Shown here: piece after piece, positions 7,691 through 29,967 of the stretch
How positions within the stretch are numbered: position 1 is the first letter of the stretch
How the letters are laid out: each line of letters opens with the position of its first letter
Assembly: GCA_947090235.1 (NCBI GenBank)
Contig: CAMUNJ010000002.1
Coordinates: 1-33,095, forward strand
DNA length: 33,095 nucleotides
From: an uncultured Bacillota bacterium
Lineage (GTDB): Bacteria > Bacillota > Clostridia > Christensenellales > UBA1242
Reading direction: 5' to 3'
Notes under the pieces: model-generated
Database searches by the model: none
Seen by the model: only the letters and a program-made list of their open reading frames with translations
What the model was told of the DNA's origin: nothing
Program-made: the position numbers and the translations under genes

Positions 7691-7746
7691 AGATTAAATT
7701 TCTTTTGTTTCTTTTCTTTACAAGAAAAGAAAAACTAGGAGACGAT

Positions 7747-8490
7747 ATGAAACAAATTATAGCAAATTTCAAAATGAACTATACTGTTGAGGAAACAAAA
7801 CAATATATGATAGAATTTCTTAGCAAAGTTGATAAAGAAAAGGCGGAAATAACTTTATGCTTGCCTTACACATCCTTGGCTGTTGGGAATTATTTTTTGA
7901 AAGATAGCAGCATAAAATTGGGTGCACAAAACCTTTCTGATGAAGAAGAAGGTAAATTCACTGGTGAAATCAATGGCAAAATGCTTGTGTCGACAGGAGT
8001 TCAATCGGTTATTGTTGGGCATAGTGAAAGACGCACAAAATTTAAAGAAAATAGCAAAATTATCAATAAAAAGATTAAAATTGCTTTAAAAAACCGCTTA
8101 AATGTTATTCTTTGCGTTGGTGAGAGTTTGACAGAAAAGAATACTTTAAAAACTTTAGAAACTATAAAAAACCAGCTTGAAGAGGCTTTGAAAGGGCTTT
8201 ATGAAAATGAACTTGAAAGAGTAACGATTGCTTATGAGCCTATTTGGGCGATTGGAAGTGGTAAAAGTGCTACAATTAAGGAAATAGAATATGCAGTTAA
8301 AGCAATCCGTAAAGTTTTGAGTGATGATTTTTCCCCAAAAGCAGGCAAAGAAACGCAAGTTTTGTATGGCGGAAGTATAACCAATAAAAATGTACAAAGC
8401 ATAATGCGTGCAAAGGAAATAAATGGAATATTAGTTGGTGGTGCATGTTTAGATGCAAATGGTTTTGCAAATCTTATCAACATGTGCTAA
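7747..8490 (+). CDS. tpiA: Triose-phosphate isomerase
   Basis: IIANFKMN, VIVGHSERR, AYEPIWAIGSGKSAT and YGGS motifs. AGGAG SD before ATG 7747; the track start at 7705 is an upstream extension. Confidence 0.93.
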   Translation: MKQIIANFKMNYTVEETKQYMIEFLSKVDKEKAEITLCLPYTSLAVGNYFLKDSSIKLGAQNLSDEEEGKFTGEINGKMLVSTGVQSVIVGHSERRTKFKENSKIINKKIKIALKNRLNVILCVGESLTEKNTLKTLETIKNQLEEALKGLYENELERVTIAYEPIWAIGSGKSATIKEIEYAVKAIRKVLSDDFSPKAGKETQVLYGGSITNKNVQSIMRAKEINGILVGGACLDANGFANLINMC

Positions 8491-8501
8491 AAGGATTTAC
8501 A

Positions 8502-8939
8502 ATGGTAATAAGAGATACAATTTTAGAAGATTTGAAAGATTTGCCTTGGCTTTATAGACAATATCATAATGGCGACACCCACATTGAAACAGATGTTGAA
8601 GGAATGACAAAAGAATTTAAAAAATTACAGAATAATGAAGATTATAAATTTGTTTCAGCGGTTGAAGGGGACAAATTGATTGGTTTTTGTTCGGTAGTTT
8701 TAAATCACGATATTGTTGAAAAACAAAAACTTATCATAATGCTTTGGAATTTGCGTGTTGCGCCTGAATATAGAGGGCAACATGTTGGGAAAAAGATTAT
8801 GGAATATATTGAAGATTTTGGTAGATCAAAAGGCGTAGATTTTATCTTCCTTGGCTGTGACAGTGATAATCAATCGGCAAGAAAGTTTTATCACAAAATC
8901 GGCTATAAAGAAGATTATGGGTTTTATAAATATCTTTAA
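8502..8939 (+). CDS. GNAT-family N-acetyltransferase
   Basis: LRVAPEYRGQHVGKKIMEYIEDFGRSKG (acetyl-CoA-binding motif A, R/Q-x-x-G-x-G/A) and ARKFYHKIGY. Start at ATG 8502 just after the tpiA stop. Confidence 0.8.
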   Translation: MVIRDTILEDLKDLPWLYRQYHNGDTHIETDVEGMTKEFKKLQNNEDYKFVSAVEGDKLIGFCSVVLNHDIVEKQKLIIMLWNLRVAPEYRGQHVGKKIMEYIEDFGRSKGVDFIFLGCDSDNQSARKFYHKIGYKEDYGFYKYL

Positions 8940-8997
8940 TTTCTAAAAAGACTTGTCATAAAACAAAAGTTATGTTATTATTTAAACAGGAGAAAAA

Positions 8998-10110
8998 ATG
9001 GAACATCAGGCATTATATAGAAAATATAGACCTAAAAATTTTGAAGATGTTATTGGACAAGAACATATCACCAAAGCACTTGCAAATCAAGTGGCTTCTG
9101 GCAAACTTGGTCATGCCTATCTTTTTACAGGCTCACGCGGAATAGGCAAAACTTCAATTGCCCGTATCTTTGCAAAGGCGGTTAATTGCGAGAACAATCA
9201 TAACGGCTCACCTTGTGGAGAATGCGAAGTTTGCAAGCGACTTGATGGTGAAAGCGATATCAACATTATTGAAATTGATGCGGCTTCAAACAACCGAGTT
9301 GATGATGTGCGTGAAATAAGAGAAAAAGTTAAATTTATGCCAGTCGGTGCAAAGTATAAAGTTTATATCATTGACGAAGTGCATATGTTGACTGACTCTG
9401 CATTCAATGCACTGCTCAAAACTTTGGAAGAGCCACCAGCGCATGTCATTTTCATTTTGGCTACAACAGAAGTTCATAAACTTCCTGCAACTATTCTTTC
9501 TAGATGTGTTAGGTTTGACTTCAGGCTTGTCAGCGTTGTTGAACTAACTAAACTTCTTGCTAAAATATTATGTGAAGAAGGTATTAAGTATGAAGAGGAT
9601 GCACTTCGTCTTATTGCCTCGGCAGGTGAAGGCAGTGTGCGTGATACACTTTCAATTGCCGACTGTGTTATTTCTTATTCTGAAAACATTGTGACAAAAG
9701 AAAATGTTTTGAAAGTGCTTGGCACTACTGACTATGACCTCTTGTTAAGATTTTATGACCTGATGGCAGACAAAGACATCGGCGGAGTTTTAAGTTTTGT
9801 TGATGAACTTGACAAGACTGGCAAGAATTTGAGTGTTTTTGTAAGAGAACTTAGTAAGCACGCAAGAAACCTTCTTGTTGTATCATCTTGCGAAAGACCA
9901 AACGAGATTTTAAATCTTCCAGAAGAGGTGTTTGAAAAGTATAAAGTTCAAGCAAGCAAACTTGAAGAGAAAAAACTTCTTTCATACATGCAAGTGTTTG
10001 CTGGTGCTGAGAATGAACTTCGCTATACTTTAAGTCCAAGATTGCTTTTAGAAACACTTGCTTTATCTGCTATGCTTGGCGAAAGTGTAGAAAACGCAAA
10101 AAAAAACTAA
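8998..10110 (+). CDS. dnaX: DNA polymerase III subunit gamma/tau, 0-frame product covering clamp-loader domains I-III only
   Basis: YRPKNFEDVIGQEH, Walker A GSRGIGKTS, zinc module CGECEVC, DEVHML and SRC motifs. Ends GCA AAA AAA AAC TAA. Confidence 0.93.
   Translation: MEHQALYRKYRPKNFEDVIGQEHITKALANQVASGKLGHAYLFTGSRGIGKTSIARIFAKAVNCENNHNGSPCGECEVCKRLDGESDINIIEIDAASNNRVDDVREIREKVKFMPVGAKYKVYIIDEVHMLTDSAFNALLKTLEEPPAHVIFILATTEVHKLPATILSRCVRFDFRLVSVVELTKLLAKILCEEGIKYEEDALRLIASAGEGSVRDTLSIADCVISYSENIVTKENVLKVLGTTDYDLLLRFYDLMADKDIGGVLSFVDELDKTGKNLSVFVRELSKHARNLLVVSSCERPNEILNLPEEVFEKYKVQASKLEEKKLLSYMQVFAGAENELRYTLSPRLLLETLALSAMLGESVENAKKN
10098..10106 (+). repeat. A9 homopolymer / A_AAA_AAA slippery heptamer at the dnaX stop
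   Basis: Nine consecutive A directly 5' of the last sense codon and TAA (10108-10110). Confidence 0.9.
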
Positions 10111-10133
10111 AACAGACGGCTAATATAGGGCAG

Positions 10134-10445
10134 TTGTCTCCTAAAAATGTGTGGGGCAAGGTGGTATTGTTCTTAAAGGAGCATCATCAAGTTGCACTTC
10201 ATGTTGCTTGTGGAGATATAACCGATGTTGCACTTGACGGACAAAATTTGATTGTTAAAGCGGGTGATGGTATGCTTGCAAATCTTCTCGCTGATGGCAG
10301 ACGCGAAATTGAAAACGCGTTGCGTTGGCAGGGGTTAGACCTTTCTTTAAAGGTTGAAATCATTGAGCATAAACTCACACCACAAGAGGAAGACATACAA
10401 AAATTGCAAAAACTTGTTGGAGATTACTTAACTATAAAAGATTAA
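10134..10445 (+). CDS. DnaX C-terminal (tau-like) segment in the -1 frame relative to dnaX; probably not an independent gene
   Basis: The -1 frame is open from the A9 run through 10445. Only a TTG start, with no good SD. The NVWGKVVLFLKEHHQVALHVA..L.V pattern resembles, from memory, the C-terminal region of Firmicute DnaX. Confidence 0.55.
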   Translation: MSPKNVWGKVVLFLKEHHQVALHVACGDITDVALDGQNLIVKAGDGMLANLLADGRREIENALRWQGLDLSLKVEIIEHKLTPQEEDIQKLQKLVGDYLTIKD

Positions 10446-10459
10446 AGGAGAAAATTAAA

Positions 10460-10897
10460 ATGAACGAAAATAAAAAACCGAAAGTATTTAAAGTTTTAAA
10501 GGTAATAGCACCAATTTTATTGCTTGTGGGGATTGTTCTAATTATATTAGGAACGGCTGTATTTCCACAAACATGGGGTGGTCGTGCAGTTGGACCAAAT
10601 CCAGCGTTGTTTGTTCCAGGAATGATAATTGCATTTTCCTCAATTCCTTGTTTTTTTATTGGATATATGACAAATATTAACAAAACTATGATAAAAACAG
10701 CAAAATATATACAAGAAGATAACAAAGAAGATTTGACTGATATGGCAAATACTTCAGCGGATATCGCGAGTGGGGCAGTTACAAAAACAGCAAAGGCAAT
10801 AAAAGAAGGGTTAAAAGAATATAAATATTGCAGACATTGTGGCAAAAAAGTTGAAGAAGATTCGAAATTCTGCAAGCATTGTGGAAAAGAGCAATAG
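10460..10897 (+). CDS. Membrane protein with C-terminal zinc-ribbon (2 TM + CxxC-x10-CxxC)
   Basis: AAAGGAG SD. Hydrophobic segments VIAPILLLVGIVLIILGTAVF and PGMIIAFSSIPCFFIGY. C-terminus YCRHCGKKVEEDSKFCKHCGKEQ. Confidence 0.65.
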   Translation: MNENKKPKVFKVLKVIAPILLLVGIVLIILGTAVFPQTWGGRAVGPNPALFVPGMIIAFSSIPCFFIGYMTNINKTMIKTAKYIQEDNKEDLTDMANTSADIASGAVTKTAKAIKEGLKEYKYCRHCGKKVEEDSKFCKHCGKEQ

Positions 10898-10959
10898 TTT
10901 ATATGTGATATTTTTGATTCAAAGAAAAGAAATTCGAACAAACAAAAAGGAGAAAGATT

Positions 10960-11283
10960 ATGGCATATGGATTTGGAGGCGGTTTTGGCGGAGGCAATAT
11001 GCAAGCACTCATGCGTCAAGCCCAAAAAATGCAAGAAGATATTGCAAGAAAAAAGGAAGAATTAGATAACACAGAGTTTACATCATCAGTTGGTGGCGGA
11101 ATGGTTGAAATAAAAATGCTTGGTAATAGAACATTAAAATCAATCAAAATCAAGCCTGAAGTTGTTGATCCTGACGATGTTGAAATGCTTGAAGATTTAG
11201 TTGCAAGTGCAGTTAATGACTGTATTTCTCAAATTGCTAGGGCAGAAAAAGATGCAATGCCAGGCATGCCAGGAATGATGTAA
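10960..11283 (+). CDS. YbaB/EbfC-family nucleoid-associated protein
   Basis: NMQALMRQAQKMQEDI...GGGMVEIKMLGNRTLKSIKIKPEVVDPDDVEMLEDLV is the family pattern. Conserved dnaX-ybaB-recR context. Confidence 0.9.
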   Translation: MAYGFGGGFGGGNMQALMRQAQKMQEDIARKKEELDNTEFTSSVGGGMVEIKMLGNRTLKSIKIKPEVVDPDDVEMLEDLVASAVNDCISQIARAEKDAMPGMPGMM

Positions 11284-11873
11284 TGCAAGAAAAATCTATT
11301 GAACGACTTATAGAGCAGTTTCGTACTCTTCCAGGTGTTGGCTATAAAACGGCACAAAGATATGCTTACTCAATTATCGAGGGTAGCAAATCTCGTGCTG
11401 ATGCTTTTGTTGACGCAATAAAAGATGTAAAAGAAAATGTTGGCTTTTGCGAAGTTTGTGGCAATTTCACAAACGAAAAAGTTTGTCCAATATGCAAACA
11501 CCGCAATCGCAAAATTATCTGCGTTGTTAAAGACCCAAAAGATATAATCTCAATGGAACGCGTAAAAAGTTATAACGGAGTTTATCATGTATTGTTTGGC
11601 ACAATAAGCCCGCTTGAAAATCGTGGTCCAGAAGATATAAAAATTCGTGAGCTTTTGGCAAGAGTTAATGAGGACGGCGTTGAAGAAGTGATTATGGCAA
11701 CTAATCCTGATGTTGAGGGTGATGCAACAGCAATGTATATTGCAAAAATTTTAAAACCACTTGGCGTCAAAGTGACACGCCTTGCTCAAGGTGTTGCAAT
11801 GGGCTCTGATATTGAATATGCAGACGAAGTGACACTTGAAAGGGCTTTGGAAGCGAGAAGATCGTTAAACTAA
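11283..11873 (+). CDS. recR: Recombination protein RecR
   Basis: LIEQFRTLPGVGYKTAQRYAY (HhH), C4 zinc finger CEVCGNFT..CPICK and a Toprim region. ATG overlaps the ybaB stop. Confidence 0.93.
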   Translation: MQEKSIERLIEQFRTLPGVGYKTAQRYAYSIIEGSKSRADAFVDAIKDVKENVGFCEVCGNFTNEKVCPICKHRNRKIICVVKDPKDIISMERVKSYNGVYHVLFGTISPLENRGPEDIKIRELLARVNEDGVEEVIMATNPDVEGDATAMYIAKILKPLGVKVTRLAQGVAMGSDIEYADEVTLERALEARRSLN

Positions 11874-11934
11874 ATTTGAATATTAATTTCTCACTGGTTG
11901 CAAGCAAAGGCTTCGAAATTAATATTCAAATTTA
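11871..11934 (+). terminator. 20-bp perfect inverted repeat downstream of recR (probable terminator)
   Basis: taaatttgaatattaatttc (11871-11890) and gaaattaatattcaaattta (11915-11934) with a 24-nt loop. The left arm starts at the recR stop codon. Confidence 0.5.
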
Positions 11935-11956
11935 GTTTTAAAAGGAAGAAAATGAA

Positions 11957-12463
11957 ATGATAATTTTAGATTGTTATAGAGATTTATGGTTGGCTGATAA
12001 TATAAAAGAACAAAAATTTATTGGTTTTTATCCTAGAGAGTTCTTTTGTTTTGATAATTTTTCATCGTTTGGATTTATTTATAGGGGTATTAAATATCCA
12101 ACAGTGGAGCATGCATACCAAGCAATGAAATTTGTTGATACTGCACCAGAAATTGCAATGCAAATCACAGAGTGTTTGTCAGCAGATCAGGCAAAAAGAA
12201 TTGCTTTTGCAAATCAAGATAAACAAAGAAAAGATTGGAAAGTGGTTAATGTTTCAATTATGGAAGAGTTGTTAATAGCGAAATTGGAACAAAATCCATA
12301 TGTAAAACAAAAACTCCTTGAAACAAAAGATTATATAATTTGTGAAGATAGTCCAAAAGACGATTTTTGGGGGATTGGGCCAAATAGAGATGGCAGAAAT
12401 GAACTTGGCAAACTTTGGATGAAATTGAGGAATGAATTGAAAGACCAAACGGAGAAAAAATGA
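11957..12463 (+). CDS. NADAR-family protein (YbiA/DUF1768-like)
   Basis: FYPREFFCFDNFSSFGFIYRGIKYPTVEHAYQAMKF and DDFWGIG..GRNELGKLWM match the NADAR domain pattern. Confidence 0.75.
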   Translation: MIILDCYRDLWLADNIKEQKFIGFYPREFFCFDNFSSFGFIYRGIKYPTVEHAYQAMKFVDTAPEIAMQITECLSADQAKRIAFANQDKQRKDWKVVNVSIMEELLIAKLEQNPYVKQKLLETKDYIICEDSPKDDFWGIGPNRDGRNELGKLWMKLRNELKDQTEKK

Positions 12464-14223
12464 TTAAAGAAGAAATTGAAAATTTATTGAATGAGGCGTG
12501 CAAAAAGGCAGGACTACAAGATGCTGAAATGAAAGTATCTTTTTCTAATCTGCCTGAGCTTTGTGATTTTCAATGCAACAATGCTTTTGCACTTGCTAAA
12601 AAAATTGGCAAAAATCCACTTGAAATAGCAGAAACAATTGTCAATAATATTGAAGAAAACGAAATTATAACTGTTGAGGCTGTTAAACCTGCGTTTATCA
12701 ATATAAAACTCACACAAAAATCACTCGAGAAGGTGGCTGAGGAATGTTTAGTAGCAGAACTTGGCGGACTTGAAAAACACAAAAATACAAAAAAAATCAT
12801 TATGGATTATGGTGGTGCGAATGTTGCAAAAGCATTACATATGGGGCATTTGCGTAGTCCTATAATTGGTGAGGGTTTGAAGCGACTTTATCGTATTTTT
12901 GGTGATGAAGTAATCTCTGATGTTCATCTTGGTGATTGGGGACTACAAATGGGTTTGACTGAACTTCAATTAAAGCTGGACGGAGTTTTAGACTATTATT
13001 TTACTGGGAAAGGAAAAGAGCCAGAAATTACTTTAGATATGCTTAATGAAGCCTATCCAAAAGCAAGTGCAAGAAAGAACGAAGATAAAGAGTTTTTAGC
13101 ACAAGCCGAAGATATTACATTAAAAATTCAAAAGAAAGAAGAGCCATATTTTACAATTTACAAGAAAATTCGTGAAGTTTCAGTTTCAAAAATTAAACAA
13201 CATTATGGCGAGCTAGGGGCAACTTTTGATCTTTGGTATGGCGAAAGCGATGCAAGTAAATATATTGACAGGGCAGTTAATCTTTTTGTTGAAAAAGGTT
13301 TGACTCGTGAAAGCGAAGGGGCTTTAATTGTTGATGTAGCCAGAGAGGGGGAACATATTCCAATTCCAAAGAAAAATCCTGATGACCCTCAAATGTATAA
13401 AAATCCTATGCCTCCTGCAATTATTAAAAAGCATAATGGGGCAGATCTTTATGCGACAACAGACATTGCAACAATTTTGATGCGTAATGAGAATTATAAC
13501 AATGTTGATGAAATTCAATATATTGTTGATAATCGTCAATCACAACATTTTACTCAGGTTTTTCGTTGTTGCAAACTTTCTGGCATTTCTCCAGAAAAAC
13601 AAAAACTCACTCATATTGGCTATGGTACAATGAATGGTGCAGATGGCAAACCTTTCAAAACTCGCAGTGGTGATACAATTAAACTTGAAGATATTATCAA
13701 TATGCTTGTAGAAAAGGCTAGCGAAAAATTAAAATCTAATGGGGTTGAAGTTAGTCGTGATTTAGCATTAAAAATTGGTGTTGGAGCAATGAAATTTGGC
13801 GACCTCTCAAACACAATTGCCAAAGATTATGTTTTTGATCTAGATAAATTTCTTGCTTTTGAAGGTAAGACTGGGCCATATATTCAATACACTGTTGCTC
13901 GTATAAACTCAATTTTAAACAAGGTAGATATTGAGGGTGGAAAAATTCAAATTGAAGATAAAGAAGAACACGACATAATTTTAGCAATTTTAAAACTTAT
14001 AAATGCTTATGAGATTTGTTATCAAGATCGCTCACTCAATGCTCTTTGTTTGGCGTCTTATGATTTGGCATCCGCTTTTTCAACTTTCTATAACAATCAC
14101 CACATTTTGAATGAAAGTGACAAAGAAAAACAAGCAAGTTATGTTTCACTTCTTAAACTAGTTAAGAAAGAGCTGACTCAAGCACTTAATGTTTTGGGAA
14201 TTGAACTTCCTGAACGCATGTAA
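12460..14223 (+). CDS. argS: Arginine--tRNA ligase
   Basis: MDYGGANVAKALHMGHLRSPIIGE (HIGH-type motif), GADLYATTDIATI, and a C-terminal DALR-type anticodon-binding region ending ..GIELPERM. ATGA overlap with the NADAR gene. Confidence 0.9.
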   Translation: MIKEEIENLLNEACKKAGLQDAEMKVSFSNLPELCDFQCNNAFALAKKIGKNPLEIAETIVNNIEENEIITVEAVKPAFINIKLTQKSLEKVAEECLVAELGGLEKHKNTKKIIMDYGGANVAKALHMGHLRSPIIGEGLKRLYRIFGDEVISDVHLGDWGLQMGLTELQLKLDGVLDYYFTGKGKEPEITLDMLNEAYPKASARKNEDKEFLAQAEDITLKIQKKEEPYFTIYKKIREVSVSKIKQHYGELGATFDLWYGESDASKYIDRAVNLFVEKGLTRESEGALIVDVAREGEHIPIPKKNPDDPQMYKNPMPPAIIKKHNGADLYATTDIATILMRNENYNNVDEIQYIVDNRQSQHFTQVFRCCKLSGISPEKQKLTHIGYGTMNGADGKPFKTRSGDTIKLEDIINMLVEKASEKLKSNGVEVSRDLALKIGVGAMKFGDLSNTIAKDYVFDLDKFLAFEGKTGPYIQYTVARINSILNKVDIEGGKIQIEDKEEHDIILAILKLINAYEICYQDRSLNALCLASYDLASAFSTFYNNHHILNESDKEKQASYVSLLKLVKKELTQALNVLGIELPERM

Positions 14224-27717: not shown

Positions 27718-29946
27718 ATGATCGTTTCTGGCTCTATAGAAGAAATCATATTTAGAAATGAACAAAATGGCTATACCGTTATGATAGTTGACTTTAAAGG
27801 TACTTCTGTGACTGCCGTTGGCAAGATGGTGGCTACAAATATCGGTGAAAATGTTTCTTTGGAAGGCGAATTTGTAAATAACAATAAATATGGTTATCAA
27901 TTTTCTTTTAATAATTATGAGGTGATATTACCAACTTCTCTATCTGGAATAGAGAGGTATTTGTCGTCTGGGCTTATTAAAGGTGTTGGGCCGATTACTG
28001 CAAAAAATATTGTTAAACATTTTGGAAAAGATACTTTTGATATTATTGAAATGAGCCCTGCAAGTTTAGCCGAAATAAAAAATATAAGCATGAAAAAAGC
28101 ACTTGAGATAGGTGAAAAATTTAAAGAACTTAAAAAAATGCAAAATTCTGTAATGTTTTTGCAAAAATATAATATTTCAACTAATATGGCTTTAAAAATT
28201 TACGAAATTTATGGAGATAGAACTGTTGATGTTGTTAAAAACAATCCATATAGATTGGTTGAAGATGTTGAAGGTATTGGTTTTTTGACTGCGGACAAAA
28301 TTGCAAAAAGCATTGGTATTCCAGCCGACAGCGAGTTTAGAGTTAGAGCAGGTTTATTGCATAGTTTAAATTCTTCTGTTGAAAAAAGTGGAAATACTTT
28401 TTTGCCAAAAACCATGTTACTTTCTTTAGCACAAAAATTACTAGAACTTGATGAGATAGAATACAAAGAACTTTATATACAAGCACTTGATAGTTTAACT
28501 TTAGATAAAACTTGTATGATTTTTTGGTATGAAAATTATGAAGTGGTTATGCTTACTAAATATTATTTTTACGAAAGTATAGTTGCAAAAAAACTTTGTT
28601 TACTAAACTGCAATACTGTTGAAGAAAAATATATTTTACATGACGAAATATCTCATTTTGAGCAAAAGCAAAAAATAACTTTTCATGAAGAACAAAAAAA
28701 CGCAATCATCAACTCTATAAATAATGGGGTATCAGTGATAACAGGAGGACCTGGTACTGGTAAAACAACAATAATAAAGTGTATTATAGAAATATTAAGC
28801 CAACACAAAAAAGAATTTATGCTTTTAGCACCTACTGGCAGGGCTTCTAAGCGAATGAGCGATTCAACGGGACATGAAGCAAAGACTATTCATAGGGCTT
28901 TGGAAGTTGGAGAAGGTGGGGTTGGGCAATTTGTTCACAACGAAAAAAATCCTTTCAAAACAGATTGTGTTATAGTTGACGAAGTTTCTATGGTTGATGT
29001 TGCTTTAATGGCAAGTTTATGTAAAGCATTACCAAGAGATTGCAAACTTATCTTGGTTGGTGATAAGGACCAACTTCCTAGCGTTGGGGCAGGGAATGTT
29101 TTGGATGACATAATAAAGTGTGAAAAGATAAATGTTAGTATGTTGACAAAGATTTTTAGGCAGGCTGATAATAGCCTAATTATTTCGAATGCTCATCTTA
29201 TTAATGATGGGAAAATGCCTATAATAGATAATTCATCTAAAGATTTTTTCTTTGAAGAACGAGGAGATTTGAACATTATAAAAAATTCGGTTATCAATAT
29301 GGTTTGTGAGCGTTTACCAAAATTTACAGGATTAGATTCAACTCAAATTCAAGTGCTTGCTCCTATGAAGGCTGGAGTTTGTGGAATAGACAACTTGAAC
29401 AGAAGTTTGCAAGATAGAATAAATCCATCTAGCATAACAAAGCAAGAGATTCAAGTTGGAGAAACAATATTTAGAGTTGGTGATAAAGTTATGCAAACTT
29501 CTAATAATTATAATCTTGTTTGGACACGCTTGAATGGGTTTATCGAAGAAGAAGGCGAAGGTGTATTTAATGGTGATATCGGTTTTATTGAGGCAATTGA
29601 TTTTCAAACAGGCGAAACAACAGTTGTTTTTGAGGATGGACGACATTGCGTATATCCAAGGACAGATATAGGTCAACTTTCACTAGCCTATGCAATAACA
29701 ATTCATAAAAGTCAGGGTAGTGAGTTTGATGTTGTTATAATTCCAATTATTTCAGGGCCTCCTATGATATTAACACGCAATTTAATATATACAGCCGTTA
29801 CGCGAGCAAAAAGAATGGTGGTGCTTGTAGGCTTACAAGAAAATTTAAAACGAATGGTCAAAAATAAATATACTGCTCAGCGTTTCACCTTACTAAAACA
29901 CCTAATAAATCAAACTTTTGATGAGATAAACGAACTTTTTAAATAA
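27718..29946 (+). CDS. recD2: ATP-dependent RecD-like DNA helicase (SF1B, RecD2/TraA family)
   Basis: N-terminal GSIEEIIFRNEQNGYTV OB-like domain, HhH region, Walker A GGPGTGKTT, VDEVSMVD, DKDQLPSVGAGNV, and C-terminal AYAITIHKSQGSEF / YTAVTRAK. Confidence 0.9.
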   Translation: MIVSGSIEEIIFRNEQNGYTVMIVDFKGTSVTAVGKMVATNIGENVSLEGEFVNNNKYGYQFSFNNYEVILPTSLSGIERYLSSGLIKGVGPITAKNIVKHFGKDTFDIIEMSPASLAEIKNISMKKALEIGEKFKELKKMQNSVMFLQKYNISTNMALKIYEIYGDRTVDVVKNNPYRLVEDVEGIGFLTADKIAKSIGIPADSEFRVRAGLLHSLNSSVEKSGNTFLPKTMLLSLAQKLLELDEIEYKELYIQALDSLTLDKTCMIFWYENYEVVMLTKYYFYESIVAKKLCLLNCNTVEEKYILHDEISHFEQKQKITFHEEQKNAIINSINNGVSVITGGPGTGKTTIIKCIIEILSQHKKEFMLLAPTGRASKRMSDSTGHEAKTIHRALEVGEGGVGQFVHNEKNPFKTDCVIVDEVSMVDVALMASLCKALPRDCKLILVGDKDQLPSVGAGNVLDDIIKCEKINVSMLTKIFRQADNSLIISNAHLINDGKMPIIDNSSKDFFFEERGDLNIIKNSVINMVCERLPKFTGLDSTQIQVLAPMKAGVCGIDNLNRSLQDRINPSSITKQEIQVGETIFRVGDKVMQTSNNYNLVWTRLNGFIEEEGEGVFNGDIGFIEAIDFQTGETTVVFEDGRHCVYPRTDIGQLSLAYAITIHKSQGSEFDVVIIPIISGPPMILTRNLIYTAVTRAKRMVVLVGLQENLKRMVKNKYTAQRFTLLKHLINQTFDEINELFK

Positions 29947-29967
29947 AAATCGTTTATCTTTTTTTTT
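29924..29967 (+). terminator. recD2 terminator
   Basis: 9-bp stem agataaacg / cgtttatct with an 18-nt loop spanning the stop codon, followed by T9. Confidence 0.55.

Follow-up and report, generated by a model that had tools for sequence, protein, structure and literature searches.

The clamp-loader gene dnaX of an uncultured Bacillota bacterium (Clostridia; Christensenellales; UBA1242) appears to be a recoded gene with two products. It was analyzed in a stretch of 33,095 nucleotides (nt), contig CAMUNJ010000002.1 of the assembly GCA_947090235.1, which is called the window in the following. Here, dnaX is split at a run of nine A's (A9) into two open reading frames (ORFs). The first one encodes a gamma-like subunit and the second one, in the -1 frame, a C-terminal part that would complete a tau-like subunit. 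The comparison with related genomes makes it very probable that the run is a selected recoding site which yields tau. Taken as a whole, the data are best explained by a two-product dnaX in which slippage of the RNA polymerase on the run is the main route to tau, and we assign a probability of roughly 0.6 to this reading. This inverted logic, with gamma in the zero frame and tau reached by a shift, had been proposed in a first-pass annotation of the window and is supported by each comparative test; the layout as such was already published in 2013 (PMC3711429).

In the proposed mechanism, standard transcription and translation of dnaX up to the TAA behind the run would give the gamma-like subunit of 370 amino acids (aa), consisting of domains I-III. 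The full-length tau-like subunit of 482 aa would be made only when the frame moves to -1 within the run. For this, the RNA polymerase would realign the nascent RNA on the T9 template and add one A, and ordinary translation of the A10 mRNA would then read ...ENAKKKLKQTANIGQ... through to 10445. Transcripts with A8 or A11 would be translated in the third frame and would lead to a second gamma-like species, which ends with ..AKKTKTDG at the stop at 10121-10123. A -1 ribosomal frameshift on the in-phase heptamer A_AAA_AAA would result in the same tau-like protein and may contribute. All positions are listed in Table 1.

Table 1. Positions of the features of dnaX and of its surroundings in the window.
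Feature	Position	Strand	Remark
dnaX zero-frame ORF, 370 aa, gamma-like product	8998..10110	+	clamp-loader domains I-III
Last stop of the -1 (tau) frame upstream of the run, TGA	10014..10016	+	5' limit of the shift window
A9 slippery run, putative recoding site	10098..10106	+	zero-frame phase [GCA][AAA][AAA][AAC]
C closing the run	10107	+	invariant in every locus examined
Zero-frame stop TAA	10108..10110	+	one codon past the run; ends the gamma-like product
Tau-specific coding segment, -1 frame	10107..10445	+	LKQTANIGQLSPKNVWGKVV...TIKD, stop 10443-10445
Stop TAA of the third (+1) frame	10121..10123	+	5 codons past the run in the window
TTG codon	10134..10136	+	only candidate start of the mechanical 103-aa ORF (10134-10445); not conserved
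Folded C-terminal domain of the tau-like product (predicted)	10140..10427	+	invariant motifs LHVACGDIT, RWQG
145-aa ORF between dnaX and ybaB	10460-10897		hydrophobic N-terminal half
Gene order	7705-14223		tpiA, small GNAT-like ORF, dnaX, tau C-terminal segment, 145-aa ORF, ybaB, recR, 168-aa ORF, argS

The zero-frame product shows the Walker A motif GSRGIGKTS, a four-Cys zinc module, the ATPase lid and domain III. With 452 bits at a cutoff of 250 for the NCBIfam model TIGR02397 (dnaX_nterm), the first ORF is a bona fide dnaX comprising domains I-III. The Pfam families PF13177, PF22608 and PF12169 span residues 20-372 of the fused protein, and residue ~372 lies at the run. Re-reading of the sequence confirmed that the ORF ends with GCA (10096-98) AAA AAA AAC TAA, which leaves two heptamers in phase within the run, namely A_AAA_AAA (10098-10104) and A_AAA_AAC (10101-10107). 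The -1 frame, described in the first-pass annotation as open to 10445, is indeed open from 10017 to its TAA and reads ..RKRKKKLKQTANIGQLSPKNVWGKVVLFLKEHH.. / ..KKKLKQTANIGQLSPKNVWGKVVLFLKEHH.. in translation. Its tau-specific segment can be reached only via a -1 shift or via a transcript with one additional A. The window has a GC content of 33%, and the run in dnaX is its only run of at least nine A's. The A8 run which had been pointed out in argS (12789-12796) was found again, in frame within the long ORF 12460-14223.

For the comparative analysis, the window was combined with 100 species-level genomes (101 sequences). A scan with one genome per species of the GTDB showed the C-terminal domain to be encoded in 143 genomes, from which 80 loci were fetched. 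A second scan of more distant representatives gave 17 further loci and a third scan three further split loci. In 99 of the 101 sequences dnaX is split at the same codon, and the C-terminal part always lies in the -1 frame, so that the proposal that relatives keep both the A-run and the split held. The run is A9 in 93 of the split loci and A10 in the other 6; it is never shorter. The six A10 loci carry the additional A on the 5' side of the run, hence their frames stay apart. Only in two sequences (L037 and L079) does an A10 run join the frames, giving fused ORFs of 501 and 483 aa. Four loci (L017, L041, L045 and L068) were checked by inspection and have the same A9 split. The C-terminal parts of the split relatives have diverged to identities as low as ~30%.

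The frames around the run are conserved as well. A zero-frame stop (TAA or TGA) follows one codon past the AAC in 90 of the 99 split loci, two codons past it in 3 and three codons past it in 6. The +1 frame is closed within 1-10 codons of the run in all of them. In 49 split loci the tau frame is closed at most 6 nt upstream of the run, and therefore the only possible place for joining the frames across the clade is the run itself. At the nucleotide level, an anchored profile of the 79 closest A9 loci shows no variation in the nine A's or in the CT behind them (79 of 79), against only 0.1-0.4 bits at third codon positions near the run, where the synonymous sites are saturated. The codon before the run is GCA, GTA, ACA or TCA, coding for Ala, Val, Thr or Ser with four-fold degeneracy, and its third base is always A. 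About 97 of the 101 A9 or A10 runs found in 568 kb of related loci are the dnaX junction site. The base after the run is a C in all 101 sequences, as part of the codons CTG, CTA, CTC, CTT or CGA. The codon CGA instead of CTN is found in a subgroup of three loci (L114, L148 and L166; e.g., L148:2618-2626), where the tau frame reads KKKR.. and the zero-frame stop lies two codons past the AAC, behind ..KKNE or ..KKND.

A more distant clade (L081-L097) has the same junction with a different linker. Between the run and the C-terminal domain, 40-125 codons are inserted (e.g., L084:2522-2530). The identity of the domain is ~30-35%, and in 17 of 17 loci the gene is split at the same site, A9 or A10 followed by CT[AG]AT. 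The recoding site is thus older than the separation of these clades. Right behind the run, the residues KKKLI[ND]E are kept in this clade, with synonymous variation. One of its members (L088:2337-2345) carries a second A9 within the tau linker, in frame and ~60 nt beyond the recoding site, which is possibly another slippage-prone site.

The downstream ORF had been noted to resemble the C-terminus of DnaX, and the alignments agree with this. A conceptual fusion of 482 aa aligns with an unsplit DnaX of 507 aa (P0252) over residues 2-482 with 43% identity (E 4e-149), and the alignment runs through the junction. The NCBIfam model PRK14962 spans residues 4-478 of the fused protein. A profile of the downstream ORF, searched exhaustively against 1.84 billion representatives, collected 161 members. 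Nearly all of them are short ORFs, and the remaining ones are the C-termini of full-length or long DnaX proteins, namely P0145 (E 6e-15), P0252 and P0258. When the C-terminal 115 aa were searched alone, no significant sequence match in Pfam, NCBIfam or PDB was found. The spacing between the run and a conserved Trp is 15 codons in 73 loci, and in the -1 frame, conservation follows a three-base period right from the run onwards. By these comparisons the downstream ORF is clearly under purifying selection and is to be regarded as the genuine C-terminus of DnaX.

The established role of tau is to tether the polymerase to the clamp loader. From its position and its homology, the C-terminal part of ~100 aa would be the part of DnaX which tethers the replicative polymerase (PolC or DnaE). 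When modelled with AlphaFold2, the domain shows an alpha/beta structure with a mean predicted local distance difference test (pLDDT) score of 80.8, and residues 11-90 mostly reach at least 85. All Foldseek matches to this model are weak. They include DnaA domain I (4tps_B, TM-score 0.74 by target length; E 0.02-0.04) and DciA, which we take to form one KH-like fold class together with domain V of E. coli tau. These weak matches suggest a KH-like or DnaA-domain-I-like fold for the modelled domain, which would place it in the same class as E. coli tau domain V.

As to the mechanism, two routes are known for dnaX in other bacteria. E. coli dnaX is subject to a programmed -1 ribosomal frameshift on A_AAA_AAG, supported by an upstream Shine-Dalgarno (SD)-like element and a downstream stem-loop. 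In that case the frameshift product is the short gamma, and the two stimulators are conserved. For dnaX of Thermus thermophilus, in contrast, later articles describe slippage at transcription, on a run of nine A's (Larsen et al., 2000, as cited in PMC1088944 and PMC5009743), where transcripts of variable run length lead to a tau:gamma ratio of ~1:1 (PMC1088944; PMC5009743).

For the clade studied here, the sequences moderately favour transcriptional slippage as the main route to tau. Constraint extends over all nine A's, and no run of fewer than nine occurs; a heptamer would require less. In contrast to the E. coli cassette, neither an SD-like element nor an RNA structure is conserved: the anchored profile of 79 loci contains no GGAGG-like motif upstream of the run, RNAalifold gave no structure for the 79 anchored sequences within 60-90 nt on either side, and the folding z-score of the 60-nt flanks, calculated per sequence, is ~-0.4 on average. 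The highly shift-prone A_AAA_AAG is never used, as AAG was seen at the site in none of the 101 sequences. Polymerase slippage is further favoured because both non-tau frames close nearby, as in Thermus, and because the A10 variants with reversed roles keep the run; this would be expected of a site where all three frames arise at the RNA level. In the window itself, a hairpin is predicted 7 nt past the run. It is specific to the lineage and was not counted as a stimulator.

Several points weigh against the two-product reading with polymerase slippage. The phase of the run suits -1 ribosomal frameshifting, first as A_AAA_AAA and then as A_AAA_AAC, and a heptamer, too, would require the A that is conserved ahead of the first Lys codon. 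Sequence alone cannot separate the two mechanisms, as both give the junction peptide AKKKLK (..ENAKKKLKQ..). The polymerases of some AT-rich organisms may slip less on A9 (Baranov et al., 2005, PMC1088944), a caution which applies to the present genome because of its AT-richness. We infer the production of tau from the conservation of the site together with the essential role of tau in other bacteria, and likewise the product ratio and the level at which the slippage would happen. Furthermore, the C-terminal domain is covered by no Pfam family in a Pfam search, and its Foldseek match to E. coli tau domain V is weak (2aya, 5fku_E; E 0.3-0.4). Finally, a start codon lies 6-12 nt past the run in ~30 of the 79 closest loci, so that re-initiation is conceivable in a subset of the loci.

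The first alternative keeps the same two-product logic and assumes that the shift is mainly ribosomal. The tRNA-Lys would slip on A_AAA_AAA or on A_AAA_AAC, the latter site (10101-10107) adjoining the zero-frame stop, and polymerase slippage would be insignificant. We consider this, or an equal share of both routes, rather unlikely, though it is a serious rival and the best of the alternatives. The phase X_XXY_YYZ is correct in every split locus, the A ahead of the first AAA codon is invariant, and in 90 of the 99 loci the slow-to-decode stop lies one codon past the site; such an immediate stop is however not strictly needed, and in 9 loci it is 2-3 codons away. Both heptamers are among the enriched -1 heptamers in Table S1 of PMC3711429, and a review of 2016 treats some of the inverted dnaX genes as candidates for ribosomal frameshifting (PMC5009743). 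In E. coli, on the other hand, A_AAA_AAA and A_AAA_AAC are far less shift-prone than A_AAA_AAG (PMC5009743), which is never seen here. The upstream and downstream elements of E. coli dnaX have no conserved counterpart, and a heptamer leaves both the invariance of all nine A's and the minimum of nine unexplained.

A second alternative dispenses with recoding. In this case, the locus would encode two separate proteins, a gamma-only DnaX and a C-terminal-domain protein of ~100 aa that is translated independently by re-initiation or translational coupling after the dnaX stop, and the A-run would be incidental. Gene callers annotate the two ORFs in this way everywhere, and the ATG, TTG or GTG codons shortly past the run in part of the closest loci would suit it. 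In the window, the 103-codon ORF has only a TTG start, as previously described, and this TTG lies behind a weak AGGG. The relatives, apart from a handful, lack a start codon there, however. Initiation at TTG 10134 was rejected for this lack of conservation, and the codon is probably not used as a start.

More generally, in 34 of the 99 split loci the stretch from the run to the conserved Trp of the domain is devoid of ATG, GTG and TTG. In the other loci the position of the first start varies, often inside conserved sequence. When the -1-frame peptide was searched against 5.8 billion protein clusters, 291 matches were obtained, of which the best 120 are all stand-alone ORFs of 89-130 aa with identities from 98% down to 53%. 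The gene calls reaching further upstream all begin with ..KKKLK.., and the others start at varied codons within the conserved sequence. With a query spanning the junction, no fused protein was seen among the best 120 of 362 matches in the same database, which is negative evidence only and comes from a database dominated by genomic A9 contigs. The 34 loci without a start, the varying starts of the others and the periodicity that begins at the run show that independent translation is not a conserved option. Moreover, two separate proteins leave unexplained why the A9C sequence is invariant at the nucleotide level over ~100 species and why the open stretch of the tau frame begins just at the run. 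As a free protein, the C-terminal domain would be unable to link the polymerase to the clamp loader, and in the outgroups the domain is covalently attached. This alternative is consequently improbable.

The remaining two alternatives concern the DNA itself. The exact 103-aa ORF of the window has no entry in the contig index, and the near-identical ORF P0001 was used to find further assemblies. In 12 of 12 independent assemblies of two species the run is A9. Two of these contigs, one of them from a mouse gut metagenome, carry the junction sequence of the window, and ten belong to another species; the assemblies span different samples, studies and assemblers. A heritable A9/A10 phase variation, in which replication slippage would supply an intact gene while the assemblies report the majority A9 allele, would agree with the two genomes that were assembled as A10 with a fused ORF of 501 or 483 aa. 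Tau is, however, essential in the bacteria studied, and a population with a majority of A9 would not be viable without recoding. As A9 is the consensus in all 12 assemblies of the two species and in 93 species, phase variation is very unlikely. A homopolymer miscall during sequencing or assembly, or a pseudogene recently decayed in one genome, had to be considered as null hypotheses, since A9 versus A10 is a classic type of error that a single window would leave standing, but both are effectively refuted by the identical split in 99 of 101 genomes that cover many hosts and studies as well as different assemblers (SPAdes, MEGAHIT, IDBA), by the identical independent assemblies, by the A10 loci, which assemble readily yet remain split, and by the clear purifying selection on the C-terminal ORF.

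The preferred reading, a two-product dnaX with slippage at the run, can be compared with the described systems. Antonov, Coakley, Atkins, Baranov and Borodovsky (2013; NAR 41:6514, PMC3711429) reported 17 two-ORF dnaX genes in 12 genera. Poly-A tracts, mostly A10 and followed by G, were present in 12 of the 17, and the authors proposed transcriptional realignment for them. The poly-A cases listed belong to the Chlorobi, the Bacteroidetes (Flavobacterium, Cytophaga, Capnocytophaga) and the Verrucomicrobia (PMC3711429; restated by Atkins et al., 2016, PMC5009743). The window shares with this type two adjacent dnaX ORFs in -1 relation in the DNA with an A tract of 7-10 A's at the ORF1/ORF2 junction, a gamma-like zero-frame stop right after the tract, and a longer tau that needs recoding. 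The arrangement, including the position and the direction of the frameshift, is conserved across species and is likewise unannotated in the source databases. At the sequence level, the dnaX of the window thus agrees with the Antonov type in every criterion. It differs in that the Clostridia clade has a strict A9 (or an A10 extended on the 5' side), which is followed by ~112 codons, and in the base after the tract, which is G in the published poly-A cases and in Thermus and C in this clade. For the published two-ORF poly-A genes, we know of no direct expression data on dnaX. In the literature searched, no mention of Clostridia or Firmicutes was found for this kind of dnaX.

The likeness to Thermus consists of the nine A's after the gamma-equivalent part and of the nearby stops in the non-tau frames, both of which are found in the window. 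In both systems, one gene is expected to give two products via mRNAs of mixed run length. Thermus reads tau in the zero frame and obtains gamma by slippage, whereas these roles are reversed in the window and in 99 of the 101 sequences. Tau in the zero frame, as in Thermus, was found only in L037, L079 and L098. These three loci have an in-frame A10 at the same junction (L037:3000-3009, L079:3000-3009 and L098:2628-2637) and ORFs of 501, 483 and 600 aa, respectively. In each of them the other two frames are closed after 0-10 codons, as in the layout of the Thermus type. L098 is one of the unsplit relatives, and its two other frames are closed immediately. They are either real role reversals or variants of the assembly or the population. 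By their sequences, L037 and L079 look like the same reversal as L098, within the A9 clade.

With E. coli the window has in common the gene, the position at the end of domain III, a slippery sequence of lysine codons and the two isoforms. In contrast to E. coli, the shifted product in the window is the long one. Of the features of the E. coli cassette, neither A_AAA_AAG nor a conserved SD-like stimulator ~10 nt upstream nor a conserved downstream stem-loop was found. Slippage of the polymerase on a homopolymer is also described for mxiE of Shigella flexneri and for the poly(A) frameshift rescue in Buchnera and Blochmannia (PMC1088944; PMC5009743). As proposed for the window, it fuses two overlapping ORFs into a longer functional protein. 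However, the genes are unrelated, and the cases in the endosymbionts are regarded as tolerated decay and not as a site conserved in ~100 species.

All carriers of the split dnaX are metagenome-assembled genomes (MAGs) of uncultured Clostridia from the guts of humans, mice, deer, sheep, goats, rabbits and chickens. Some of them are labelled Candidatus Caccovivens or 'Christensenella sp.'. One C-terminal ORF (P0021) is labelled at NCBI as a hypothetical protein of 'Acetobacter sp.' (MAG), and some loci are labelled as Lachnospiraceae or Acidiphilium. These labels are probably errors of binning or taxonomic labelling for the Clostridia lineage. Broader related lineages, with labels including Christensenellaceae, Candidatus Scatosoma, Coproplasma and Heteroclostridium, possess an unsplit dnaX of 544-624 aa and no run of at least nine A's at the junction. 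The first-pass annotation had regarded relatives with an unsplit dnaX lacking the A-run as a case against recoding. Such relatives do exist, but only as more distant outgroups. The split is thus derived within the Clostridia. As the closer Clostridia relatives are unsplit, its origin is evidently independent of that in the published phyla.

The core gene order tpiA-dnaX-ybaB-recR-argS is common to the window and the loci L180-L189. The 145-aa ORF that lies between dnaX and ybaB in the window shows a zinc-ribbon-like motif CxxC...CxxC in its C-terminal part (CRHCGKKVEEDSKFCKHCG). In another species of the clade (L180), this ORF is missing at that position and ybaB follows directly. The only T9 run of the window (29959-29967) is intergenic, just past the stop of the ORF 27718-29946, and possibly belongs to a terminator tail.

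The inverted layout of dnaX has been known since 2013 from other phyla; new is a large, unannotated lineage of this kind in the Clostridia. The layout in which tau needs recoding is thereby extended to a fourth phylum, by independent origin. In every genome or metagenome examined, this essential replication gene is annotated as a short dnaX and a 'hypothetical protein' of 90-125 aa. Consequently, a clade of at least ~160 species-level genomes of uncultured gut Clostridia, found in humans, mice, ruminants, rabbits and chickens, seems to lack tau in the annotation, and annotation pipelines should join both ORFs. The clade also provides a clean comparative set of ~100 species, in which A9C never varies, stimulators are absent, the shift window is reduced to the run and natural variants with reversed roles occur. 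Using this set, slippage of the polymerase and slippage of the ribosome become testable with simple reporters.

For the biology of these Firmicutes, the finding predicts a gamma-like clamp-loader subunit as the default product of dnaX. Firmicutes such as Bacillus subtilis are generally regarded as lacking gamma. It is a speculative and rather doubtful extension that the A9 run is a tunable setting and not a fixed 1:1 device, with gamma as the default and the amount of tau set by the frequency of polymerase slippage. If this were true, slippage could respond to nucleoside triphosphate (NTP) pools, growth rate or temperature and would couple the composition of the replisome to the physiology of the cell, and the A9 split and A10 fused variants would represent evolutionary flips of the default isoform.

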